Source: Nitrospirota bacterium
GTDB lineage: Bacteria > Nitrospirota > UBA9217
DNA length: 64,000 bases
Direction: 5' to 3'
NCBI GenBank assembly: GCA_963790205.1
Contig: CAWBNQ010000011.1
Coordinates: 134,066 to 198,065, forward strand
Positions 33,504-62,523 of this stretch are shown here, piece after piece. Below the pieces are notes generated by a model that did no database searches, was not told where the DNA came from, and worked only from the letters and a program-made list of their open reading frames with translations. The first letter of the stretch is position 1. Each line of letters starts with the position of its first letter. A program made the position numbers and the translations under genes.

Positions 33504-34886
33504 ATGGCTGATATCATACTCGTTATCGAAGACAAGGAAAGCATGCTCGACATGCTCAAACAGACCCTCGAGGCTGAAGGCTACCGGGTGCTCCCCGCCA
33601 GGGACGGGTCCGAAGGGATCAGAAAGCTCGCTGACGAGCGGATCGGGTTGGTGCTCACGGACCTCAAGCTCCCGAAGAAAGACGGTTTCGAGGTGCTCAA
33701 GGCCGTGAAAGAGGACAGCCCGCTCCTGCCGGTCATCGTCATGACCGCTTTCGGCACGATCGAGACCGCGGTCAAGGCCGTAAAACAGGGGGCTTACGAT
33801 TTTCTCACCAAGCCCTTCGACACGGACCACCTGCTCGTGCTTATCAAGCGGGCGCTGGATGCCACGCGCATTGCCGCGGAAAATATTCTGTTGAAGGAAG
33901 AATTCGCGGACAGGCTCGGCCTGCCGAAGATCATCGGCAAGAGCATCCCGCTGCAGGAGATCACCGCAAAGACGCAGAAGGTCGCCCCCACGAACGCCAC
34001 GGTCATGATCCACGGCGAAAGCGGCACGGGCAAGGAGCTCTTCGCGCGCGCCATCCATTATCTGAGTCAGCGCAAGGACGGGCCTTTTGTGGCGATCAAC
34101 TCCGCCGCCATCCCGCGGGAACTGCTCGAGAGCGAGCTCTTCGGATACGAGCGCGGCGCCTTTACCGGCGCGGACGCGCGGAAGCTCGGGAAGCTTGAAC
34201 TGGCGGACAAAGGCACGGTGTTCCTGGACGAGATCGGCGACATGGACCTGGCGCTCCAGGCCAAACTGCTCCGCGTGCTCCAAGAGCAGGTGATCGAGCG
34301 CGTGGGCGGCGGCAAACCCATCAAGATCGATGTCCGCGTCGTGGCAGCGACGAACAAGGACATCGAAAAGGCCGTGGCCGCCAAACTGTTCCGCGAGGAC
34401 CTGTTCTACCGGTTGAATGTGTTCCCCATCACCATACCGCCGCTCCGGGAACGGCGCGACGATATCCCGCCGCTGGCGCAGCATTTTCTGAACAAGTATT
34501 CCGCCGAAGTGCGGAAAGGGCCGCTCACCATCTCGGATGAAGCCATGGACATTCTTATGAAATCGCCCTGGAAAGGCAATATCCGGGAACTCGAGAACGT
34601 GGTCGAGCGGGCGGTGATCTACGCCGAAGGCAGCGTGATCCGCGCCCAGGACCTCGGTATCAGCGAATCGAGCATCCTCGACGCCCTTGCCGAGCACGTG
34701 CCCATGGATGGACCGCTCCAGGAAATCGCCGCCGCCGCAACGCGTATCGCCGAATCCCGCAGGATCAAACAAGTCCTGAAGCAGACCGGCAATAACAAGA
34801 CACGGGCCGCGGATATCCTCCAGGTAAGCTACAAGACGCTCCTCACGAAGATCAAGGATTATCAGCTGGAGGAGAAGGGGGAGTGA
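33504..34886 (+). CDS. sigma54-dependent response regulator (NtrC/PilR-like)
   Basis: Receiver domain, GESGTGKE, GAFTGA, C-terminal Fis-type HTH. Confidence 0.93.
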   Translation: MADIILVIEDKESMLDMLKQTLEAEGYRVLPARDGSEGIRKLADERIGLVLTDLKLPKKDGFEVLKAVKEDSPLLPVIVMTAFGTIETAVKAVKQGAYDFLTKPFDTDHLLVLIKRALDATRIAAENILLKEEFADRLGLPKIIGKSIPLQEITAKTQKVAPTNATVMIHGESGTGKELFARAIHYLSQRKDGPFVAINSAAIPRELLESELFGYERGAFTGADARKLGKLELADKGTVFLDEIGDMDLALQAKLLRVLQEQVIERVGGGKPIKIDVRVVAATNKDIEKAVAAKLFREDLFYRLNVFPITIPPLRERRDDIPPLAQHFLNKYSAEVRKGPLTISDEAMDILMKSPWKGNIRELENVVERAVIYAEGSVIRAQDLGISESSILDALAEHVPMDGPLQEIAAAATRIAESRRIKQVLKQTGNNKTRAADILQVSYKTLLTKIKDYQLEEKGE

Positions 34887-35041: not shown

Positions 35042-35246
35042 ATGGCGGTTCCTGATTTCCAGTCATTCTTCAAGCTTCCTGGACGTTGCAGCGGACGCCA
35101 GAGAGCACTCCATGAAAGAGGCGAGGGAAATCATTGCCAGGCGCATGAATATTGCCGAGGCTGATCTTCGCGAGTTGCTTCCGAGCCGGACGCAGACGAA
35201 ATACGACAACCGAATTGCTGGGCGAAGAGTTATTTGGTCCAAGCGG
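35042..35246 (+). pseudogene. mrr: Mrr restriction protein, N-terminal fragment (frameshifted)
   Basis: Across frames: MAVPDFQSFFK..LDVAADAREHSMKEAREIIARRMNIAEADLRELLPSRTQTKYDNRI.WAKSYLVQA, the Mrr_N pattern. Confidence 0.8.
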
Positions 35247-35321: not shown

Positions 35322-35555
35322 ATGAGAAAAGTTGCCCTTCCATTGGCACGACTATCATTCTCTCAAAAGCTGGATTTAATGGAGACCCTCTGGGCGGACC
35401 TGTCAAAGGACGAGAAAAAACTGGAGTCCCCGGCCTGGCATGGCGCCGTTCTCAAGGAGCGAGGAACCGCCTATGCGGCCGGCAAGCTCGCAGCGTCGGA
35501 CTGGGAACAAGCTAAGAAACGAATTAAATGGCATAACCAAGCAATGGCTGATTGA
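35322..35555 (+). CDS. Putative addiction module component (antitoxin-like)
   Basis: LSFSQKLDLMETLWADL...SPAWH..VLKER...DWEQAKKRI. Confidence 0.8.
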   Translation: MRKVALPLARLSFSQKLDLMETLWADLSKDEKKLESPAWHGAVLKERGTAYAAGKLAASDWEQAKKRIKWHNQAMAD

Positions 35556-35573: not shown

Positions 35574-35891
35574 ATGATAGACCAGACACTTATTGCGAAA
35601 GCCACGAAACTTCTTCTCGATGCCGCACATCCGAACAAAATCATCCTGTTCGGGTCATACGGTCGGGGTGATGCAGTCGCGGAAAGTGATGTCGATCTCC
35701 TGGTGGTGGAAACCGATGTGCAGGACCGCGTCGCGGAAATGACGCGATTGAATCGAGTGCTCAGTCCGCTGCGCATGTCGATCGACTTGCTGGTCGTGAG
35801 CCAGGAGACGTTCGACTACTGGGCAAGCACTCCGGGAAACGTCTATTTTCAGGCAATCCAGGAAGGGAAGGTCCTGTATGAGGCAGCATGA
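35574..35891 (+). CDS. Minimal nucleotidyltransferase (MNT) antitoxin
   Basis: LFGSYGRGDAVAESDVDLLVV (GS-x10-DxD). Confidence 0.9.
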   Translation: MIDQTLIAKATKLLLDAAHPNKIILFGSYGRGDAVAESDVDLLVVETDVQDRVAEMTRLNRVLSPLRMSIDLLVVSQETFDYWASTPGNVYFQAIQEGKVLYEAA

Positions 35892-36267
35892 ACAAGCCCT
35901 CCTCTTGTTGAAAAAAGCCGAAGAAGATATCACGCTCCTCTCGGAGGTTATCGCCTCGGAAAGGATCAGCAATGAAATATTCGGGTTTCATGCTCAACAA
36001 GCAGCGGAAAAATGTCTCAAGGCAATACTCTCGGAGTTGGACGTTCGCTTCGCGCGGACGCACAACCTGCGGCTGCTGATGGACCTTCTTGCCGATGCCG
36101 GCCATCCTCTTCCGTCCTCTCTCACCGATCTCGATCTTCTGACTCCCTACGGAACGTTGTTCCGGTACGAAGACATCCCCGCTCAAGTCGACCTTGACCG
36201 CAAAGAGATCTTTGAAATGATATCGGTTTTGCGATCACTTGTTGAAAAGAAACTTAGCGCTCGTTGA
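35878..36267 (+). CDS. HEPN domain protein (MNT-HEPN pair)
   Basis: GFHAQQAAEKCLKA, RTHNL, LTPY..FRY; overlaps the MNT stop. Confidence 0.88.
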   Translation: MRQHEQALLLLKKAEEDITLLSEVIASERISNEIFGFHAQQAAEKCLKAILSELDVRFARTHNLRLLMDLLADAGHPLPSSLTDLDLLTPYGTLFRYEDIPAQVDLDRKEIFEMISVLRSLVEKKLSAR

Positions 36268-36523
36268 AAGCACTGTGGGCCGCCCAGAAATTCAGAAATT
36301 TGTTGGGGCGCTTCATGGGAAAAGAGCAAAGAAGGGCGTCTTCATCACAACAGGAAGGTTTTCCGAGGATGCCGTGAAGTACGTCGAGAGCATCGATCCC
36401 AAGGTGATCCTGATCGATGGACAAGCGCTTGCGGAACTGATGATCGATTATGGATTGGGGACGACTTCCACGGCGATGTATGAGATAAGAAGGGTGGATT
36501 CGGATTACTTTGCGGAAGAATGA
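36266..36523 (+). pseudogene. mrr: Mrr restriction protein, C-terminal fragment
   Basis: STVGRPEIQKFVGALHGKRAKKGVFITTGRFS...LIDGQALAELMIDYGLG...DSDYF; the preceding catalytic QAK motif is missing. Confidence 0.85.
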
Positions 36524-36643
36524 TTTGCACGCCCACGAGTAGAGTCAAATGAGAATATCGTAATGTAGTGGCTTTTGGGGAAAGCACAAAAAATTGGCAG
36601 AGCCCCGAAGTTCTTACTGGACTTAATAAATAGGAGGCGACGC

Positions 36644-38977
36644 ATGAACCTCTCTGTAATAGAACGAATGATACGCGATGGTGATATGAGTTCAGATGCA
36701 ATGCGTTACCTTCTAAGTTGCCGTGCCGAATGTGAATGGTTGGATTATAAAGAGATTATTCATCTCGAATTAGACGCCGAGCTTTGTAATTTTGCAAGGG
36801 ATGTACTAGCAATTAAAAACGTTGGTGGTGGCTACATAGTGATAGGCGTTAAGGATAAAACATGGGAGCAAGCGGGGTTAAGCGAAAAACTTCCATATGA
36901 CTCGAAAATGCTCCGAGATAAAATTCGTCGCGCAACCGGCTTGGACTTGGATGTAGACATCGTTCATCACAATATTCAAACACCTGCATCAACTGGTCTC
37001 TTTGCCCTGATCTTCATCCGTTCAACGCGCAAGAGAAAAAAAAGAAGAGTCCCTACACTTTCGTCCAAAGATTTTTGTAGTGGTAAGGATTATGGCATTC
37101 GTCGAGGTGAAATTTATGTGCGACGAGGTGATTCGACGGTCAAAGTTCAATCTGAGCATGAACTTGAGGAGCTACTTGATAGTCTAGAAACTCAGACCGA
37201 TGATGATGCAGTAATGCTATCTGGCCGCTCATCCTATTTCGCAGTTGACGATGCAACTTATCGTCTTTTGGAGAAAGGTTATGAACAGTTCGTTGGTCGC
37301 ACAAAGCTCAGACAAGAATTGCTAAATTCAGTAACTCGTGATCCAAGGATTTGGATTATAAATGTCCACGGAGCTGGAGGTGTTGGAAAATCTGCACTTG
37401 TAAACTGGGTGGTCTACGAGTTTTATAAACAAAGAACTTTTGAGGCTATCTTGCAGCTGACTGCAAAAGAGACAGTGCTTACGTCTAAAGGCATTGAAAA
37501 ATTTGGACGTTCCCTTTATTCATTAGAGAATTTACTGGATCACATTTTGCTTTTATTTCAGGAGACTCCGCCAGCTGATCTAGAAGAAAAAAAGAAACTT
37601 GCCATGGAATATCTTTCGGCTTGGAAAATGCTTCTTGTTTTAGATAATATGGAAACTGTGCAGGATGGACGAATACTAAATTTTGTTCAGCAGTTGCCGC
37701 CAGATACAAAAGCGAAAGTCCTGATCACAAGTAGACAAAAAACAGGCTCATGGGAATTGCCTTTCCCAATTCAGGAACTGAATTCATTTGAAGTACGGGA
37801 ATTTTTGAAAATACGCTCAGAGGAAATGAACTTAAACTTTCCTTTAGACGATATGACGACTGAAAAAGTATTGAAAGCAACGGGAGGATTGCCTCTTGCA
37901 ATTCAGTGGGTGCTGGGTCAATACAGAATTAAGAATAATGTCGAAGGAATTATGCAAAATGTACTTGGAAGAGATTCTCCAGTTCTCGAATTTAGTTTTC
38001 GTAACATTTGGAGGGTCTTATCTTCAGATGCTAAAGCGATACTTTCGGTACTTTCAATATTTGATGACCCGCCGACGTCTCAGCAGATTGCGGTATCGAC
38101 AGAATTTGCCGTTGAGAGAATAGAAAAAGCTTTGACTGAGCTGTCCGATGTTACGTTAGTAACGAGAAGTACCCAGATATCAGATGGCCGAATCATCTAC
38201 ATAGCATTGCCTATAACTCTATCTTTTGCGCGACATCAACTTAGTGATATGGGAGATTTTGAACTTAATTGTCGACGCCGTTTTCAAAAGTTCTCAGAAC
38301 AAATGGAATTACAGGAGTCGGAGATATTTAGATATCGAAGTCGGTTTGAGCAGTTCGGCATTGAAACTGATAATGAAAAACGGGCTGCAATTTTGTGCCA
38401 AAGGGGTGAATCAGAAATGTTTGTTGGCAATGTTGATACCGCAGAGACACTTTTTAAACAAGCTCGCGATCTTGCACCTCAAAGTGCATATGTGTATTCG
38501 ATGAGCGCTAGCTATGAACTTGCGCGTAATAGAGTAGGCAATGCTTTAAACTTTGCCGAGGAAGGCTGCAAACGTGCAACTAAAAAAACGGGTGCACTCT
38601 GTTATACAATCAAGGCTAGAATTCTTGACGTTCAACGAAATCACAATGGGAGAGTGGCGGCTCTAGAAAAAGCAATTGAATATGACCCCAACGATTTCGT
38701 AATTCGTCATCAGTATGGTGTTGCTTTGAGTCGTGCTGGACGGACGGAGGATGCGATTAAACAATTTTCAATAATAATAGAAAAAAATAAACAACTAGCT
38801 ACTCCATCAATTCAATTGCTGATGGCACTTAAAACAAGGATGATAAATACTAAGCGCCTTGGGAATCAAGATGAATTTAATAAAGATTTAGCATGGGCTA
38901 AAGAGCTGTTTATTAAATATCCACATTTATCCTCTGAGGCGCAGCATTTTACTAATTTCTTTGAGGAAGAAGCTTAA
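36644..38977 (+). CDS. Schlafen/AlbA_2 - NB-ARC (STAND) NTPase - TPR protein (NLR/Avs-like)
   Basis: SD AGGAGG. ECEWLDYKE and AIKNVGGGYIVIGVKD (AlbA_2). GAGGVGKS, LLVLDNME, LITSR, GGLPLAI (NB-ARC). C-terminal TPR-like helices. AT-rich relative to flanks. Confidence 0.85.
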   Translation: MNLSVIERMIRDGDMSSDAMRYLLSCRAECEWLDYKEIIHLELDAELCNFARDVLAIKNVGGGYIVIGVKDKTWEQAGLSEKLPYDSKMLRDKIRRATGLDLDVDIVHHNIQTPASTGLFALIFIRSTRKRKKRRVPTLSSKDFCSGKDYGIRRGEIYVRRGDSTVKVQSEHELEELLDSLETQTDDDAVMLSGRSSYFAVDDATYRLLEKGYEQFVGRTKLRQELLNSVTRDPRIWIINVHGAGGVGKSALVNWVVYEFYKQRTFEAILQLTAKETVLTSKGIEKFGRSLYSLENLLDHILLLFQETPPADLEEKKKLAMEYLSAWKMLLVLDNMETVQDGRILNFVQQLPPDTKAKVLITSRQKTGSWELPFPIQELNSFEVREFLKIRSEEMNLNFPLDDMTTEKVLKATGGLPLAIQWVLGQYRIKNNVEGIMQNVLGRDSPVLEFSFRNIWRVLSSDAKAILSVLSIFDDPPTSQQIAVSTEFAVERIEKALTELSDVTLVTRSTQISDGRIIYIALPITLSFARHQLSDMGDFELNCRRRFQKFSEQMELQESEIFRYRSRFEQFGIETDNEKRAAILCQRGESEMFVGNVDTAETLFKQARDLAPQSAYVYSMSASYELARNRVGNALNFAEEGCKRATKKTGALCYTIKARILDVQRNHNGRVAALEKAIEYDPNDFVIRHQYGVALSRAGRTEDAIKQFSIIIEKNKQLATPSIQLLMALKTRMINTKRLGNQDEFNKDLAWAKELFIKYPHLSSEAQHFTNFFEEEA

Positions 38978-39056
38978 CAAGTGATCAGTCCATCATTTAC
39001 GGAAGGAACCCTTGGGGTTGCGTTCTAGATGCGCGTTACTATTCAAAAAAAGCGAT

Positions 39057-40586
39057 ATGACAGTTGAACTCTCAAATACTCTTGACGTTGTCCGCAAATC
39101 ATTGAACGGCACTACCTCACGTCGCGAACGATCGAAGATCGGTCAGTTCTTTACGCCTGCTCTGATCGCGCGGTATATGGCATCGCTGTTCCAGAATGCG
39201 GGGCCGGAGGTACGCATACTCGATCCCGGAGCAGGGGCGGGGGTTCTGTTTGCGTCGATGATCGAAACGTTTGTTGCTAAGAGACAACATCCTCATTCTA
39301 TCACTGTTGTTGCCTATGAAAATGACAAAAACGTTCTTCCCCATCTGAAGGATACCATGAAGCAATGCGAAGCACTCTGCAAAAGTGCCGGCATTTCATT
39401 CCGAGGGGAAATACGGCCAGATGATTTTGTCGCGTCTGCCATTACTCAAACCGCCGAGGGTTTATTCACGCAGGGTGGCAAACGCTTCACGCATGCGATC
39501 CTGAATCCGCCGTACAAGAAAATCAATAGTGATTCGACAATGCGGCGTTCATTAAACACAGCGGGGCTTGAGGTTACAAACCTCTATGCAGCGTTTGTGT
39601 GGCTTTCGGCGCGGATGTTGACGCCCGGCGGCGAGATGGTTGCTATTACTCCGCGCAGCTTCTGCAATGGACCGTACTTCCGCCGATTTCGAATTGGCCT
39701 TCTTAGCATGATGAGCCTGCGGCATATTCATGTGTTCGAGTCGCGTAAGAAAGCCTTCGGTGATGATGAGGTGCTTCAGGAAAACGTGATTTATCATGCA
39801 GTCAAGGATGCGGAGAAGCCTCAGCATATTCTGCTCTCGATCTCCGATGGCCTAGATTTTGATCATACGGAAACGAGGACGGTTCCTTATGACCGGATTA
39901 TCTTGCCGGGAGATCGTGACGCGTTCATCCATCTCGTTCTCTCCGACGTTGACAACCGCGCAACGGAACAGATGCGTAAGTTTATAACGACGCTGAATGA
40001 GCTTGGCATGGAGGTTTCCACCGGGCCGGTCGTGGAGTTCCGGGCGAGTAAGTATCTCCACAAGCTCCCGGTTAAAGGGACCGTGCCCCTCATATATCCT
40101 GCCCATTTCAGGGATGGCTTTATTCACTGGCCGGCGGAATCCCCAAGAAAGCCGAATGCAATCGATGCCGTACCGCATACTGAAGACATGCTGCTTGACG
40201 CTGGATATTATGTTCTTACCAAACGGTTTTCATCGAAAGAGGAACGGCGGCGGGTTGTGGCGGCGGTATACGATCCTCATGTGGTAAAGGCGTCGCATGT
40301 GGGGTTTGAAAATCATATAAACTACTTCCATGCCAAGGGCAAGGGACTTGCGCCAAACCTCGCCAAGGGATTGGCCCTCTATCTTAATTCCACACTGTTC
40401 GATCAGTATTTTCGCATATTCAGCGGGCATACCCAGGTCAATGCCACAGACCTGCGAAAAATGCATTATCCCACTCGTGAGCAACTGCTTCGGCTGGGCG
40501 CTCATGTGAAGCAGCACCTGCCAGATCAGGAAACGATGGACGCAATCCTAAAAAAGGAATGTGAAACGGATGGCCAAAAAGACTGA
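39057..40586 (+). CDS. Type II N6-adenine DNA methyltransferase (gamma class, M.BsuBI/M.PstI-like)
   Basis: GQFFTP, ILDPGAGAG (motif I) before NPPY (motif IV); FSGHTQVNATDLR. Confidence 0.9.
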   Translation: MTVELSNTLDVVRKSLNGTTSRRERSKIGQFFTPALIARYMASLFQNAGPEVRILDPGAGAGVLFASMIETFVAKRQHPHSITVVAYENDKNVLPHLKDTMKQCEALCKSAGISFRGEIRPDDFVASAITQTAEGLFTQGGKRFTHAILNPPYKKINSDSTMRRSLNTAGLEVTNLYAAFVWLSARMLTPGGEMVAITPRSFCNGPYFRRFRIGLLSMMSLRHIHVFESRKKAFGDDEVLQENVIYHAVKDAEKPQHILLSISDGLDFDHTETRTVPYDRIILPGDRDAFIHLVLSDVDNRATEQMRKFITTLNELGMEVSTGPVVEFRASKYLHKLPVKGTVPLIYPAHFRDGFIHWPAESPRKPNAIDAVPHTEDMLLDAGYYVLTKRFSSKEERRRVVAAVYDPHVVKASHVGFENHINYFHAKGKGLAPNLAKGLALYLNSTLFDQYFRIFSGHTQVNATDLRKMHYPTREQLLRLGAHVKQHLPDQETMDAILKKECETDGQKD

Positions 40587-41538
40587 TGCAAAGAAAGCAG
40601 CGCGGAAACTGGAAGAAGCATTGGCGGTATTGGATGCTCTCGGATTGCCCCGGCAGCAGCAAAACGAGCGGTCCGCTCTCACGCTTCTTTCGCTTTTAGG
40701 ACTGAAACCCGGCGACTCGTGGGACAAAGCAAGTGATCCGTTGATGGGCATTACTCCCATGATGGAATTTTTCTCCGAGCACTACGCCAAGAAGTATGCG
40801 CCGAACACGCGTGAGACAGTGCGCCGCCAGACCGTACATCAGTTCGTACAGGCTGCCCTGATCGTGCTGAATCCCGACAGGCCTTCCCGACCGACCAATA
40901 GTCCGAAAGCGGTGTACCAGATCGAGCCCTCCGCATTGAACCTGCTCCGCGAGTTTGGCAAGCCGGCCTGGAAAACGCATTTGAACGTGTATTTGCTTAC
41001 GACCAAAACATTGAAAGGTCGTTATGCGCGCGAACGGGATAAACGCCGTATTCCCGTGACGCTGGCGAAGGGCCAGAAGATCAAACTTTCACCAGGCGGG
41101 CAGAATGTTCTAGTGAAGAAGATCATCGACGACTTCTGTCAGTTGTTTACGCCGGGCGGTCGTATAATCTATGTCGGCGACACGGAGACGAAATGGGCTT
41201 ATTTCGATGCTGCTGCTCTGAAGGAAATGGGAGTTGACATAGAGGAGCACGGGAAGATGCCGGATGTGGTGGTTCATCATGTCGAGAAAGATTGGCTCGT
41301 TCTGATAGAAGCCGTAACGAGCCACGGTCCGGTGAACCCGAAGCGCAGACAGGAGCTCAAGGAACTTTTTGCCGACTCAACGATCGGGCTGGTGTTTGTG
41401 ACCGCATTTTTAGACCGGCGCGCAATGGTGAAATATCTCGACGATATCTCCTGGGAAACGGAAGTCTGGGTGGCTGAAGCGCCGACTCATCTCATTCATT
41501 TCAACGGTGAGCGCTTCTTGGGGCCGTATGATGATTAA
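40570..41538 (+). CDS. BsuBI/PstI-family type II restriction endonuclease
   Basis: YAPNTRETVRRQT.HQF, PTNSPK, LSPGG, HGKMPDVV, LIEAVTSHGPV, ISWETEVW. Confidence 0.9.
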   Translation: MAKKTDAKKAARKLEEALAVLDALGLPRQQQNERSALTLLSLLGLKPGDSWDKASDPLMGITPMMEFFSEHYAKKYAPNTRETVRRQTVHQFVQAALIVLNPDRPSRPTNSPKAVYQIEPSALNLLREFGKPAWKTHLNVYLLTTKTLKGRYARERDKRRIPVTLAKGQKIKLSPGGQNVLVKKIIDDFCQLFTPGGRIIYVGDTETKWAYFDAAALKEMGVDIEEHGKMPDVVVHHVEKDWLVLIEAVTSHGPVNPKRRQELKELFADSTIGLVFVTAFLDRRAMVKYLDDISWETEVWVAEAPTHLIHFNGERFLGPYDD

Positions 41539-41573
41539 CTGCAAATTGATTGGCTGTGCTTTGAGGAGATGCT

Positions 41574-42263
41574 ATGTCAATTGATCTTGCCGACTATAAG
41601 GCAAAAACGCGGGCCGCAGTAAAGCGGCTCTGGACTGGCGGGAAAGTCGGATCAAGAAAGAAGATTTCCGGCACGATGGGCGGTTTCGCGGACCTCGTTG
41701 TTGATATTGTGTGCGCAAATGGTTTGACGAAGGCGCATGTTCTGCCGCACGATCGACCCGTCTCGCTTCCAGGGCATTTCTCCGCGACCCAATCATGGGA
41801 TATCGTAGTGGTGAACGAGGGCCGTTTGATAGCGGCTATAAAAGCCGATTTCGTGCTCGGCCCTTCACTTTCCGCAGGTGCGGGTTGCGACTACGATAAA
41901 GTCCTCGGGAGGGCGATGGAGTTGAAGGCTGTATACCGGAAAGGAGTTTTTGGGGAAACCAGAAAACCCTTTGTCGGCTATCTGATACTTCTCGAAGATG
42001 CTCCGGGTTCCCGCAAGCCGGTAACGGATGTGTCCCCGAACTTTCCTTTATTTCCGGAGTTCAAAGGCGCATCATATGCGGAGCGGTATAACATCCTGTG
42101 CAAGAAACTGATGGCTGAAGAGCTGTATACCGCCGCCGCTGTTATTCTATCACCACGAAGCGCTTCCAAATCCGGCGCGTATTCCGAGATGAGCGATATG
42201 ACCGGGCTTAAATCGTTTGTTAAAACGCTTGCGGCACATATTTCAGCTGAGGCGACACCATAA
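41574..42263 (+). CDS. PaeR7I/XhoI-family endonuclease homologue, active site apparently degenerate
   Basis: IDLADY...GFADLV..IV.ANGL, LPGHF..T..WD, LEDAP.SR.PV...SPNFP.FPEFKGASY..RY.ILCKKL..E.LY; the expected ELKS/NNFNNR segment is replaced. Confidence 0.8.
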   Translation: MSIDLADYKAKTRAAVKRLWTGGKVGSRKKISGTMGGFADLVVDIVCANGLTKAHVLPHDRPVSLPGHFSATQSWDIVVVNEGRLIAAIKADFVLGPSLSAGAGCDYDKVLGRAMELKAVYRKGVFGETRKPFVGYLILLEDAPGSRKPVTDVSPNFPLFPEFKGASYAERYNILCKKLMAEELYTAAAVILSPRSASKSGAYSEMSDMTGLKSFVKTLAAHISAEATP

Positions 42264-42328
42264 GTGAACGCAGGCGTCGTTGACCCATCATAGTCGTGCT
42301 AACTGATTCCTGCGTTTATTTTAATTGA

Positions 42329-44362
<2,034 letters not shown>

Positions 44363-58919: not shown

Positions 58920-59044
58920 ATAGCGGGGGCGTTTTATCTTTCATTCGACGCAGCACTATTTCCCGTATCTGTTGAAGTCGCTATTCCTTGAAACAAAACA
59001 ACAAAAATACTGATTGTCACTATTCCCATCTCGATGAATAGCGG

Positions 59045-59270
59045 GGAAGCATCTTTTGGCCACTCTGAAAGGGAAGCATCCGTTTGCCAATAGTGCAATT
59101 CGGGATTCACAAAGCTGTAAAATCAGCGACTTGTAAAAAAATGTAGTCTATATTTGCAGCGAGGGGAAGCATCTTTTGGCCAATAGTCTTAGCAATGCTT
59201 TTAGCGCTTTTTGTTCAAAAGAACCCATTCTTTGGCCAATCGTGTAAAAAGGAACCAACAGCTTGCCAAT
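59045..59270 (+). repeat. Five degenerate 20-bp direct repeats at an island boundary
   Basis: GGAAGCATCTTTTGGCCACT (59045), GGAAGCATCCGTTTGCCAAT (59072), GGAAGCATCTTTTGGCCAAT (59165), GAACCCATTCTTTGGCCAAT (59221), GGAACCAACAGCTTGCCAAT (59251). Confidence 0.75.
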
Positions 59271-59342
59271 CATACACTACTTCGTTAATACAAGTTCATC
59301 GCAAAAAAAGAATTCTTGCGTCTGTTCACGCGCAGGCATTTT

Positions 59343-60170
59343 TTATGCGCACGCAAGCTTTCTCTCAATTTTCATATTGGGCAGATCAATCTCAACATAC
59401 ACTAAGTCGTTATAGGACTGCCCTGGCTGAACACATATAGTATTCCCTATATGTGCTTGCCATAGGCCGGATACCTCGGGAGATTCATGGATGTGTCCAT
59501 GCAGTGCAAGCTTAGGTTGCCGCTCGGCTAAGAATGTATATATAGCCTCGGATCCGACCTTTTTGCCATTATAGCATACATCTAAACCGATCCTTGAAGG
59601 CGGCATATGAATAATATAAACAGATTTACATGCATCAGCAGGGATGGGCAGGCGCTTGACCTTTTCGTCAACCGTAGGGAGAGTCTTTATATAGCTTGAC
59701 CAGTCTGATATTTTTTGCCACCCGTTTGCATTAGAAATAAGCGCGGTTCCGTATTGCTGGCCTATGACGTAACCTGAAGTATCTCGAAGGCACCGATCTT
59801 TCAGTCGGAAGGGATAATCGACAACGTAATTCATTCCAATAAATTCAAATTCTCCGATCTCATACTTCTTCTGGGCAAGATTGATTATGTGAGGAAACTG
59901 CCGACAGGTATTGTCAAATAGCTCATCAAATATTTTAAGATCGTCATTGCCCAAATAACAGAGAAAAAAGATGCCCTCCCGGCCCAATCGATCAAAATAC
60001 TTTGAAAGATAATCAGTTATAAAATTTCCTTGTTTGAATAGATCGCCGCTTTTAGGCAGCATATCTCCGCCATTAATAACCACGTCAGCCCTAGTGCGCT
60101 TTGCGAGGTCAAAAAGGCGGTCATATTTCCATACAACTCCATGTAGGTCAGTTACATATAATAGTTTCAT
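59343..60170 (-). CDS. Calcineurin-like metallophosphoesterase
   Basis: TDLHG, GGD, GNDD, HMPP, HGHIHE; AT-rich. Confidence 0.88.
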   Translation of the reverse strand: MKLLYVTDLHGVVWKYDRLFDLAKRTRADVVINGGDMLPKSGDLFKQGNFITDYLSKYFDRLGREGIFFLCYLGNDDLKIFDELFDNTCRQFPHIINLAQKKYEIGEFEFIGMNYVVDYPFRLKDRCLRDTSGYVIGQQYGTALISNANGWQKISDWSSYIKTLPTVDEKVKRLPIPADACKSVYIIHMPPSRIGLDVCYNGKKVGSEAIYTFLAERQPKLALHGHIHESPEVSGLWQAHIGNTICVQPGQSYNDLVYVEIDLPNMKIERKLACA

Positions 60171-60314
60171 TGGGTTCGTCACGGGCAAGTTACTGATCAC
60201 TCCCAAGCCTGCCAAAAGTGCAGAATACAGTAGAGGCCTTCTAATGGTCCAACTCTATTAGAACGCAAAGCTGATGAGTGTGCGGCCTTACGCTGTGGCC
60301 CTCTTGAGAGGTAG

Positions 60315-60892
60315 CTAGACCTTTTGCACGCGGTTAAAATTCCGCTTTATTAAATCCAATAAAAATTTTTTAAAATGTTCGTATAGCCTTATAAATAGTC
60401 TACGCGAACTTATTTCCGCTTTTCTTCTTTGCTCGGCTGCCAGATGCCGACCTGTGACTATCCATCCTGCTTTATCTCCCAGAGCAGCAATTGGTGGATA
60501 TAGGCACCCGGTATTGCATTTCCCTCCACGAGCAACATCCATAGTTCCGGTTACAAAATGATAATTTTGTTCTCCTGAGTTCGATATGCCTAAAGGATTT
60601 ATAACCATTGATAGCATCTGTAAAACTTGCAATGAAGCGAGATTTTGACTGAAAGGGAAGACATTCTCATTTCTCTTCAAAATATGATCATCTGAAAGGC
60701 CTTTTATATATGATGGATCATCGAGGTGCCCTTCGCGTTCCATCTGTACAAGGCCCGGGTCATATTGTTCAAGACATTCAAGGCATTTTCTTGTTGGATA
60801 AGCTACGTGTGCTTTCCAGTCAGCACTCTGCAAATCACCATTTTTTTTCTTTTGTATCAAAATACCGCCATCGATTACGGGTATGAGATGGG
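60315..60892 (-). pseudogene. ThiF/E1-like adenylyltransferase, C-terminal part, interrupted by a mobile element
   Basis: The frame reads HLIPVIDGGILI...CLECLEQYDP...DDPSYI...NENVFPFS right up to the element end at 60893. Confidence 0.65.
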
Positions 60893-60975
60893 TGTCCTAG
60901 CGACCAGTTTATGATAACAAGGATTTGAGGAAATAGGGTGACACTCCAAAGTTAGGTTTTGAAAGGAGTGTCATC

Positions 60976-62523
60976 ATGAAACCAGAAAAGAGTATACAGC
61001 AAGTAGGCAGGAAAAGGAAGTTCCCGAAACGAAGCAAGCGGTATGGACCGGATTTCAAGCTTCAAGTCGTCAAAAAGTTTGTTGAAGAAAGCGTCCCTGC
61101 TTCGGTGATTCGGCAGGAATGCGGATTGAGCAGTGGGACGGTCGGGCGCTGGGTGCGCGACTATCGTCGTCATGGCGAAGCGGGGCTCGCAACGCATTAC
61201 AGAGGTAAGGGGCGCAGTCTTCCTTCTCCGGTAAGGCAGAAGATCGTCGAGGTAAAAGAAGCCAACCCGCTCTTCGGCATCAAGCGCATTTCACAGGTTT
61301 TAAAGAGGGCGTTTTTTCTTTCCGCCAGCCCTGAAACAGTCCGCAAGACCCTTCACGATTCATCCCTCATCAAGTCCCCGCCTAAGAAGCGTCAGCGTAA
61401 TATCACCCGTCCCCGTTTTTTCGAACGATCAACGCCGAACCAGCTGTGGCAAACGGACATCTTCACGTTCCGTCTTGGCGGCCACTATGCGTACCTGATC
61501 GGCTACATCGATGATTACTCCCGCTACATCACGGGGCTCGAGCTTTTCCGCACTCAGACGGGCCAGAACGTTATCGAGGTATACCGCCGGGCGTCCTCCG
61601 AGTACAACCCGCCGAAAGAGATGCTCACGGATAACGGGCGGCAGTATACGAGCTGGCGCGGGCACAGCCGTTTTGAGCTGGAGCTCAAGAAAGACAAGAT
61701 CCACCACATCAAATCCCAACCACACCACCCTATGACCCTGGGCAAAATCGAACGGTTCTGGAAGACGATCTACCTGGAGTTTCTTGTCAGAGCGCAGTTC
61801 GATAGCTTCGAGGACGCCGCCGAGCGGATACGGCAGTGGGTGAAGTATTACAACCACAAACGACCGCACCAGGGGATCGGCGGCCTGTGTCCCGCGGACC
61901 GGTATTTTGAGATCCAGAGCGAGCTCAGGAAGACGATCGAGCATGGCATCCAGGAGAATCTCCTCGAGATGGCGCTCCGCGGGAAGCCCAAGCTGCCGTT
62001 CTACATGGTGGGCCGCATGGAGGGGCAGTCGGTAGTGCTGCGGGCGGAAAAGGGCAAGCTGCGTCTATCGGTTGACGATGAAGAGGATGACACCACGCAG
62101 GAAGTAGTCTACAATCTAAACGAAGAAGGGGCCGGCCATGGAAAAAACGGAGAAGATAAAAAGCGAGAAGAAGCGGCAGATGACAAACCACGGGGCGATG
62201 GAGAAATGCCGGGCGGTTCTCTCAATATGGACGGAGCGGCGGAGGCCGGCGGAAGTATGCCGGGAGATGGGGATACCGTGGATGGTGCTCTCCCAGTGGC
62301 AGAAACGGGCGATGGAGGGAATGCTCCAGGCTCTGGAACCCCGGGTGATCCTGGACAAGGGGCCGGCGCTCAGCCCGCGGCTGCAGACGATGCTGGAGAA
62401 AAAGCGCCTGATGCTCCCGGTACAGAACAGGCTGGAAAAGACGCTGTCGAAGGCGCAGGAAGCAAGGAAACCGGAGAAGCTAAAGGACCTGAAGCCCGAA
62501 AGCTCCCCCCTGCGCAAGGCTGA
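60976..62523 (+). CDS. IS481-like DDE transposase with a low-complexity C-terminal tail
   Basis: N-terminal HTH; WQTD, IDDYSR, TDNG, GKIERF, YNHKRPHQG. Confidence 0.9.
   Translation: MKPEKSIQQVGRKRKFPKRSKRYGPDFKLQVVKKFVEESVPASVIRQECGLSSGTVGRWVRDYRRHGEAGLATHYRGKGRSLPSPVRQKIVEVKEANPLFGIKRISQVLKRAFFLSASPETVRKTLHDSSLIKSPPKKRQRNITRPRFFERSTPNQLWQTDIFTFRLGGHYAYLIGYIDDYSRYITGLELFRTQTGQNVIEVYRRASSEYNPPKEMLTDNGRQYTSWRGHSRFELELKKDKIHHIKSQPHHPMTLGKIERFWKTIYLEFLVRAQFDSFEDAAERIRQWVKYYNHKRPHQGIGGLCPADRYFEIQSELRKTIEHGIQENLLEMALRGKPKLPFYMVGRMEGQSVVLRAEKGKLRLSVDDEEDDTTQEVVYNLNEEGAGHGKNGEDKKREEAADDKPRGDGEMPGGSLNMDGAAEAGGSMPGDGDTVDGALPVAETGDGGNAPGSGTPGDPGQGAGAQPAAADDAGEKAPDAPGTEQAGKDAVEGAGSKETGEAKGPEARKLPPAQG

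Follow-up and report, generated by a model that had tools for sequence, protein, structure and literature searches.

Can a single bacterial gene couple NLR-like recognition to a Schlafen ribonuclease? The question is raised by a gene in a 64,000-nucleotide stretch of DNA from a Nitrospirota bacterium (GenBank assembly GCA_963790205.1, contig CAWBNQ010000011.1, positions 134,066 to 198,065; hereafter the window), which encodes a Schlafen/AlbA_2 domain, an NB-ARC-type nucleotide-binding domain (NBD), a winged helix, and tetratricopeptide repeats (TPRs). Our analysis indicates that the gene is intact and very probably defensive, and that the family to which it belongs probably halts protein synthesis upon viral infection. 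By analogy with described systems, the protein is likely to work in the manner of an Avs system encoded by one gene: on sensing a presumed trigger it would oligomerise, and Schlafen-mediated tRNA cleavage would follow. A single-gene, STAND-triggered tRNase had been proposed from the nucleotide letters alone (hereafter the sequence-only reading). The architecture, the catalytic motifs, and the island context on which that proposal stood all hold, and it is still the best reading, but the claimed novelty was overstated. The domain order, the intact catalytic and ATPase motifs, and independence from partner genes are apparent from the sequence and the structure model.

The start methionine was invariant in all 30 homologue rows of the alignment. 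An alternative upstream TTG start would give an 800-aa protein and is unlikely because the homologues begin at the same methionine. The gene is AT-rich, as had been noted, with a GC content of 0.40 (0.32 at third codon positions) versus 0.55 for the genome and below that of every neighbour measured. No second full-length copy was found in the host genome. Pfam matched SLFN_AlbA_2 (PF04326) with 39.3 bits (cut-off 25.3), NB-ARC at aa 225-434 with 41 bits (cut-off 23.5), and TPRs at aa 581-728; in each of the three regions, one or more models exceeded their curated cut-offs. All 777 residues could be assigned to the Schlafen domain, a 30-aa linker, the NB-ARC domain, a winged helix-turn-helix (wHTH), an arm, or the TPR array.

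An AlphaFold2 model based on 30 homologues (mean pLDDT 79.8, pTM 0.37) showed the Schlafen domain, linker, NBD, helical domain, winged helix with a beta-hairpin, long arm helix, and ~5 TPR-like helix pairs in that order. The effector-NTPase-sensor architecture of the sequence-only reading, including its likely winged helix and TPRs, was thus borne out by the open ORF (open reading frame), the Pfam domains, and the model, which confirmed the domain order and, because of the pTM of 0.37, does not settle the packing between domains. The top Foldseek matches were the STAND/NB-ARC proteins PH0952, Apaf-1, CED-4, and plant NRC proteins, with SAMD9 structures also among the matches. When the NBD-winged-helix profile was compared with the PDB, the best matches were Roq1, PH0952, NRC4, and NRC1, and AfsR was also found. 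The NB-ARC motifs GAGGVGKS, LLVLDN, LITSR, and GLPLAI are all present as described earlier. Judged by its Walker A and B motifs, sensor arginine, GxP motif, and winged helix, the protein is a STAND of the NB-ARC/AP-ATPase clade.

The profile of the head matched SLFN14, SLFN11, and CbCash, with positions 25-71 falling onto CbCash 13-59. The previously noted ECEWLDYKE pattern corresponds to E29, D34, and K36, which by the offset of the profile match (match coordinates rather than a residue alignment) fall on E17, D22, and K24 of CbCash. CbCash is a demonstrated tRNase, and this triad is required for its tRNA cleavage (PMC13462974).

A word-indexed protein search gave 327 matches, of which the best 120 were 58-100% identical to the query and, in nearly all cases, ~775 aa and full length. 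In an alignment of 126 rows (these 120 plus six more distant full-length members), E29, D34, K36, D53, N59, D163, K249, D334, N335, E337, R364, L522, P523, T525, and H689 were invariant (126/126). The invariant D53 and D163 could be additional active-site residues. K58 (36815-36817) lies in a Schlafen box reading LA(I/M/L)KN, with the lysine in 123/126 rows, where other Schlafens read SAFAN. A basic stretch in the same domain was also well conserved (R126 in 123, K130 in 119, R131 in 117, R134 in 117, and R135 in 119 of the 126 rows) and was less basic among more distant members.

The mechanism that we propose by analogy starts from a monomer that would rest in a closed state. Provided that the gene is defensive, the odds somewhat favour the TPR array binding a signal of infection, with a conserved phage protein as the likeliest one; Avs STAND proteins are described as sensing phage proteins (10.64898/2026.01.04.697583). 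Nucleotide exchange and STAND oligomerisation would then gather several single-lobe Schlafen domains, so that the catalytic pocket of one faces the basic patch of the next, for which the stretch at aa 126-135 could serve. In RzAgo, dimerised single-lobe domains rebuild the two-lobed Schlafen site, with the partner giving the basic patch (10.64898/2026.05.29.728809). Under the same proviso, the molecule cut would with high probability be tRNA. Translation would then stop and the phage yield would drop.

The family was found in none of the 63 other genomes of the host family and in three of 401 genomes of the phylum, including one in which the match was partial. Members 51-70% identical to the query occur in Actinomadura, Kiritimatiellia, Nitrospirae, and others, and further members in Eisenbacteria and Kryptoniota; viral contigs and phage records yielded none. 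The GC content of the gene was below that of its flanks at 14/14 genome loci (not counting two distant ones from Oscillatoria) and at 31/33 metagenome loci. Among 88 loci, 57 carried intact genes, 17 partial ones, and 14 genes with a frame change or stop, some of which are probably assembly or alignment artefacts. Two copies were decayed across three frames (L014:10001-12197 with 7 stops and L101:965-3190 with 13 stops). Several Schlafen-NB-ARC clusters, generically named, are present in the Atlas. By its sequences, the family is patchy and probably horizontally spread, with a mobile, low-GC character. In P0157 (420 aa) and in the 383-aa P0158, the Schlafen domain of the family (51-52% identity) is joined to unrelated C-terminal regions that have no Pfam matches, apparently including a hydrophobic, membrane-like segment in P0157; the Schlafen head moves off the STAND chassis too.

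The neighbours of the homologues were examined at 32 metagenome loci, that is, the 37 of 74 on longer contigs minus four duplicates and L038, which has the same layout as L002 and L003 (a likeness judged without alignment). We scanned 143 of 175 ORFs against PADLOC, leaving out five of L038, 21 of ≤112 aa, and six at outer edges; the control comprised 148 ORFs from 18 of 20 random 9-kb regions of genome G000 (two overlapped others). Under a strict filter (E ≤ 1e-30, ≥70% of the profile), chosen after the matches had been seen, defence neighbours occurred at 14/32 loci versus 1/18 control regions (p = 0.005); when any PADLOC match at E ≤ 1e-15 was counted, the numbers were 18/32 versus 6/18 (p = 0.15). 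Many test loci have one flank missing, the loci are not independent, and the control is a single genome, so the enrichment is support rather than proof. Five of 11 genome loci with longer flanks (selected ORFs only) passed the strict filter (L001, L002, L003, L009, and L012), and an Abi_alpha gene lies directly upstream at L014. No conserved partner gene was found across the homologue loci; the neighbours vary, which indicates that there is no obligatory partner. At L002 (3030-4733) and L003 (12356-14186), from an Akkermansia-labelled and a Kiritimatiellia-labelled genome, 98%-identical gene copies are each followed by two ORFs (~184-224 and 372 aa) without Pfam or PADLOC matches; recent cassette transfer or bin contamination might explain the sharing, and the two ORFs are possible unknown defence genes.

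Four members lie inside operons of DNA-modification systems, namely Hma (HmaA-gene-HmaB, L001), BREX (PglX-gene-PglZ, L081), and type I restriction-modification (R-M) systems (hsdS-gene-hsdR at L083; L090 has one further gene before hsdR), and four lie beside such systems (L003, L056, L058, and this window). Insertion inside such operons fits an anti-phage gene in general, and these positions would also suit a guard, whose TPRs sense phage anti-restriction proteins or an inhibited R-M, BREX, or Hma component and whose Schlafen domain is a back-up tRNase. PARIS (through AriB) and PrrC are tRNases too, and their triggers invite comparison with such a guard. The conserved basic TPR and arm residues R544, R546, K579, R608, R659, R670, R732, and R738 could suit an acidic DNA mimic. 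However, the host systems are mutually unrelated, many members have no such neighbour, and operon positions of this kind are general landing sites for accessory genes. We therefore consider a guard role unlikely.

Several observations weigh against a defensive, phage-triggered tRNase. No experimental test of any family member was found in the literature searched, most subscription papers lying outside the search, and our analysis did not pin down a trigger. Besides the unsettled domain packing and the post hoc filter with its one-genome control, 14/32 loci had no PADLOC match at all, and at L011 the gene lies among metabolic genes. Two of seven Schlafen genes protected E. coli in the tests described in PMC13056530, and for Avs9, toxicity but no anti-phage activity is described (PMC12680541). 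The TPR array is conserved like the rest of the protein (mean identity 0.59-0.65 for TPR1-4) and does not look like the product of a fast arms race. Such strong sensor conservation across phyla would fit a conserved host ligand, as expected if the same chemistry served a stress- or plasmid-responsive dormancy or cell-death switch, or a selfish toxin, with a host or mobile-element trigger. Members among conjugation genes in a conjugative-element-like region (L013) and beside integrases or insertion sequence genes (L001, L008, and L010) point the same way, as do the 30.4% of pSlfn genes reported without defence neighbours (PMC13056530). However, the patchy distribution and the defence-island context speak against it, and tested STAND-TPR effectors of like layout answer phage proteins (10.64898/2026.01.04.697583). 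A dormancy switch or selfish toxin thus appears quite unlikely.

The phage-triggered tRNase reading also gains from a wider set of relatives. An unfiltered HMMER search gave 99 further proteins of at least 690 aa among its best 150, which formed a set of 110 with 11 close members. The heads in this set were Schlafen domains (56, with the motif in 55), Swt1-like HEPN domains (37), helical domains of two small groups (8 and 2), and singletons (7, several truncated). The motif R-x4-6-H was present in 46/47 non-Schlafen heads versus 4/47 in a control stretch; it is listed as a HEPN motif (table in PMC3710099). It occurred in 36/37 Swt1-like heads (identified, e.g., in P0185, P0224, and P0260) and in 10/10 helical heads (P0153-type, 8; P0219/P0232, 2), whose HEPN label is drawn solely from this motif. 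Pfam HEPN models gave no match in the five of these proteins scanned in full (for P0181, among the 25 of 30 matches listed); by their sequences, these helical heads are probably unmodelled HEPN families. The Swt1-like proteins (P0176, P0185, P0253, P0257, and others), mostly ~930 aa, read HEPN-NB-ARC-TPR, some with C-terminal cold-shock domains (P0253 and P0257), and form a candidate system in their own right.

A quick tree of the NBD-winged-helix region (SH-aLRT support only, midpoint root, careful search unfinished) placed the family of the query on a branch with a support of 100 and required five changes among the four head types, with well-supported branches forcing two or more changes for Schlafen and two or more for HEPN. 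Heads have thus been exchanged or lost more than once, in a direction that the tree cannot tell. Because the set is biased towards query-like proteins, one cannot conclude from it that every head in the clade is an RNase. Head exchange bears on whether the protein is instead a nucleic-acid-binding regulator, a MalT/AfsR-like STAND whose AlbA_2 domain would bind DNA or RNA without cutting it. Names given in databases, 'putative DNA binding domain' for example, would suit a regulator, as would PH0952 and AfsR among the best NB-ARC matches. However, the catalytic triad is invariant (126/126), relatives swap the head for HEPN-type domains that keep R-x4-6-H, and no conserved regulated neighbour was seen, which together leave a regulator very improbable.

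A further peculiarity concerns the off state. The MHD-type histidine is typical of NB-ARC proteins, although not universal. In plant NLRs and AfsR, this residue keeps ADP bound and the switch off (10.64898/2026.09.02.748808). In the query, the strand-to-helix junction closing the winged helix reads Y-x-A-L-P-I-T. Column 522, placed as the latch position from secondary structure and an extrapolated AfsR match rather than a residue-level superposition (the match falls 14 profile positions short of L522 and 11 residues short of H603), held histidine in 0/126 family members and 0/110 clade proteins, and columns 512-530 contained no conserved histidine. The off state is therefore probably kept by contacts of the TPRs or arm with the NBD or by occlusion of the nuclease. 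In the literature searched, we found no report of the NB-ARC family, of its HEPN-headed relatives, or of the lack of the latch histidine. A broader and rather doubtful possibility is that the query represents one branch of an unnamed NB-ARC receptor clade for translation shutdown, with Schlafen/HEPN head swaps, no MHD latch, and a short TPR array, basic and conserved, that senses a signal outside the known Avs list, e.g., phage anti-restriction or DNA-mimic proteins or nucleic acid. If true, the clade would correspond to PrrC/PARIS but be built on an NLR, and it would provide a pared-down model for how SAMD9-type proteins are activated.

The gene lies in a 7.4-kb island (Table 1) between a sigma-54-type regulator ORF (ending at 34886) and a DNA-ligase-like ORF (starting at 42335), both labelled from their translations only. 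The sequence-only reading placed it between mrr/HEPN and an R-M system. The HEPN pair and the R-M genes do lie on either side of it, but mrr survives as just two relics, separated by the addiction-module gene and the MNT-HEPN pair. Insertions into older defence genes seem to be how the island grew. No separate methyltransferase for the XhoI-like endonuclease was found among the ORFs at 39012-42335. Elsewhere in the window, a second low-GC patch (GC 0.42) occurs at 59001-61000.

Table 1 Features of the Schlafen-NB-ARC-TPR gene and its island (window coordinates).
Feature	Position	Strand	Basis or remark
mrr N-terminal relic, frameshifted	35042..35219	+	Mrr_N 41.3 bits, at 35073-35219
Putative addiction-module component	35322..35555	+	PF09720 48.3 bits
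MNT nucleotidyltransferase and HEPN gene pair	35574..36267	+	Pfam
mrr C-terminal relic	36239..36523	+	Mrr_cat profile 58-115 only; PADLOC mREase_IV 234-316/317
AGGAGG, Shine-Dalgarno-like	36632..36637	+	6 nt 5' of ATG; sequence
Schlafen-NB-ARC-wHTH-TPR gene	36644..38977	+	ORF open throughout, 777 aa, no stop
Single-lobe Schlafen/AlbA_2 RNase domain (predicted), aa 1-181	36644..37186	+	Pfam 29-168; profile matches SLFN14, SLFN11, CbCash
Catalytic motif E29-x4-D34-x-K36	36728..36751	+	126/126 members; register fits CbCash
Conserved basic residues of aa 126-135, candidate patch for RNA binding	37019..37048	+	Suggested by conservation
NB-ARC-type NBD	37280..37768	+	Walker A G243-S250, Walker B D334-N-M-E337, sensor R364; K249/D334/N335/E337/R364 126/126
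Helical domain with GLPL, then winged helix	37769..38251	+	L522-P523 where the MHD motif is expected; histidine absent
Presumed sensor, a short array of TPRs (aa 576-777)	38369..38974	+	Pfam, structure model
BsuBI/PstI-type methyltransferase and endonuclease	39012..41538	+	Pfam, PADLOC
XhoI-like endonuclease	41574..42263	+	Pfam; island ends before ORF at 42335

The family would bring together two active research fields, on NLR-like pattern recognition and on Schlafen tRNases, in one compact protein (777 aa) of which hundreds of natural variants exist. With it, one can test directly how a STAND oligomer builds a Schlafen active site and how an NB-ARC switch lacking the latch histidine is kept off, and the Avs repertoire may gain a new phage pattern from its trigger.

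Bacterial Schlafens are demonstrated anti-phage tRNases (PMC13056530, PMC13462974), and the suggestion that pairing one with a STAND is new went too far, since Schlafen-STAND fusions are in print (Avs9, bNACHT34, and one pSlfn15 protein). As far as this particular family is concerned, no description was found in the literature searched. The best PADLOC match (E 1.8e-4) covered residues 18-171, no PADLOC model spanned the full length, and NCBIfam gave no model near its cut-off. Avs models were absent from the matches to PADLOC 2023 and NCBIfam 2026, two libraries that are not known to cover Avs6-24.

Avs9, described as AlbA_2-STAND-TPR-OB with AlbA-dependent toxicity of the P. fluorescens protein (PMC12680541), shares with SAMD9 and the query an N-terminal AlbA_2 domain with acidic catalytic residues, a STAND-like NTPase, and TPRs (PMC12680541, PMC5445408). 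However, Avs9 matches SAMD9 over ~1,400 residues and carries a SIR2-like and an OB-fold domain in addition, whereas the query is about half that length and has, with its 30-aa linker, no room for either. Assignment to the Avs9/SAMD9 type was thus rejected; the query is simpler than both. No relatives of 1361-3885 aa reached E ≤ 1e-10, which is weak evidence. bNACHT34 and SLFN-NACHT proteins also carry a Schlafen RNase N-terminal to an NLR-related STAND NTPase (10.1101/2022.07.19.500537, PMC13462974, 10.64898/2026.05.29.728809), but bNACHT34 belongs to the NACHT clade. A bNACHT assignment of the query was rejected, as NACHT scored 16.1 bits (cut-off 26.7) while NB-ARC exceeded its cut-off and gave the best PDB matches.

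The sensor-fused tRNases pSlfn5, pSlfn7, Cash, and SLFN-pAgo have the same E-x4-(D/E)-x-K motif (PMC13056530, PMC13462974, 10.64898/2026.05.29.728809), and higher-order assembly was shown to be needed for activity in Cash and RzAgo (PMC13462974, 10.64898/2026.05.29.728809). However, their described sensors are Ig-like, DUF262, Csx15, or Argonaute domains. None of the 55 architectures listed in the pSlfn catalogue names Schlafen, NTPase, and TPR together (PMC13056530). Among the 5,930 proteins in its supplement, one pSlfn15 protein has a Pfam NB-ARC domain (AlbA_2.NB-ARC, ~580 aa, no TPR annotated) and lies outside the four architectures tested (PMC13056530). The HEPN-headed relatives described here share, by description and not by sequence, the HEPN-STAND-(TPR)-cold-shock layout predicted by Anantharaman et al. 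in 2013, which is a prediction only and has HEPN in place of Schlafen (PMC3710099).

Like Avs1-24, described as effector-STAND-TPR single genes near defence systems that are activated by phage proteins (10.64898/2026.01.04.697583 / PMC13581612), the query combines effector, STAND, and repeat sensor in one gene, as seen in Pfam and the model. AlbA or Schlafen domains go unmentioned in the main text of the preprint of that survey and in seven journal supplements, mostly source data, and its sensor clustering kept C-terminal regions of at least 400 aa (10.64898/2026.01.04.697583 / PMC13581612). With ~340-400 aa after the NTPase, the query is borderline for this clustering, and its family may well sit unlabelled in one of the 198 defence clades of the survey.

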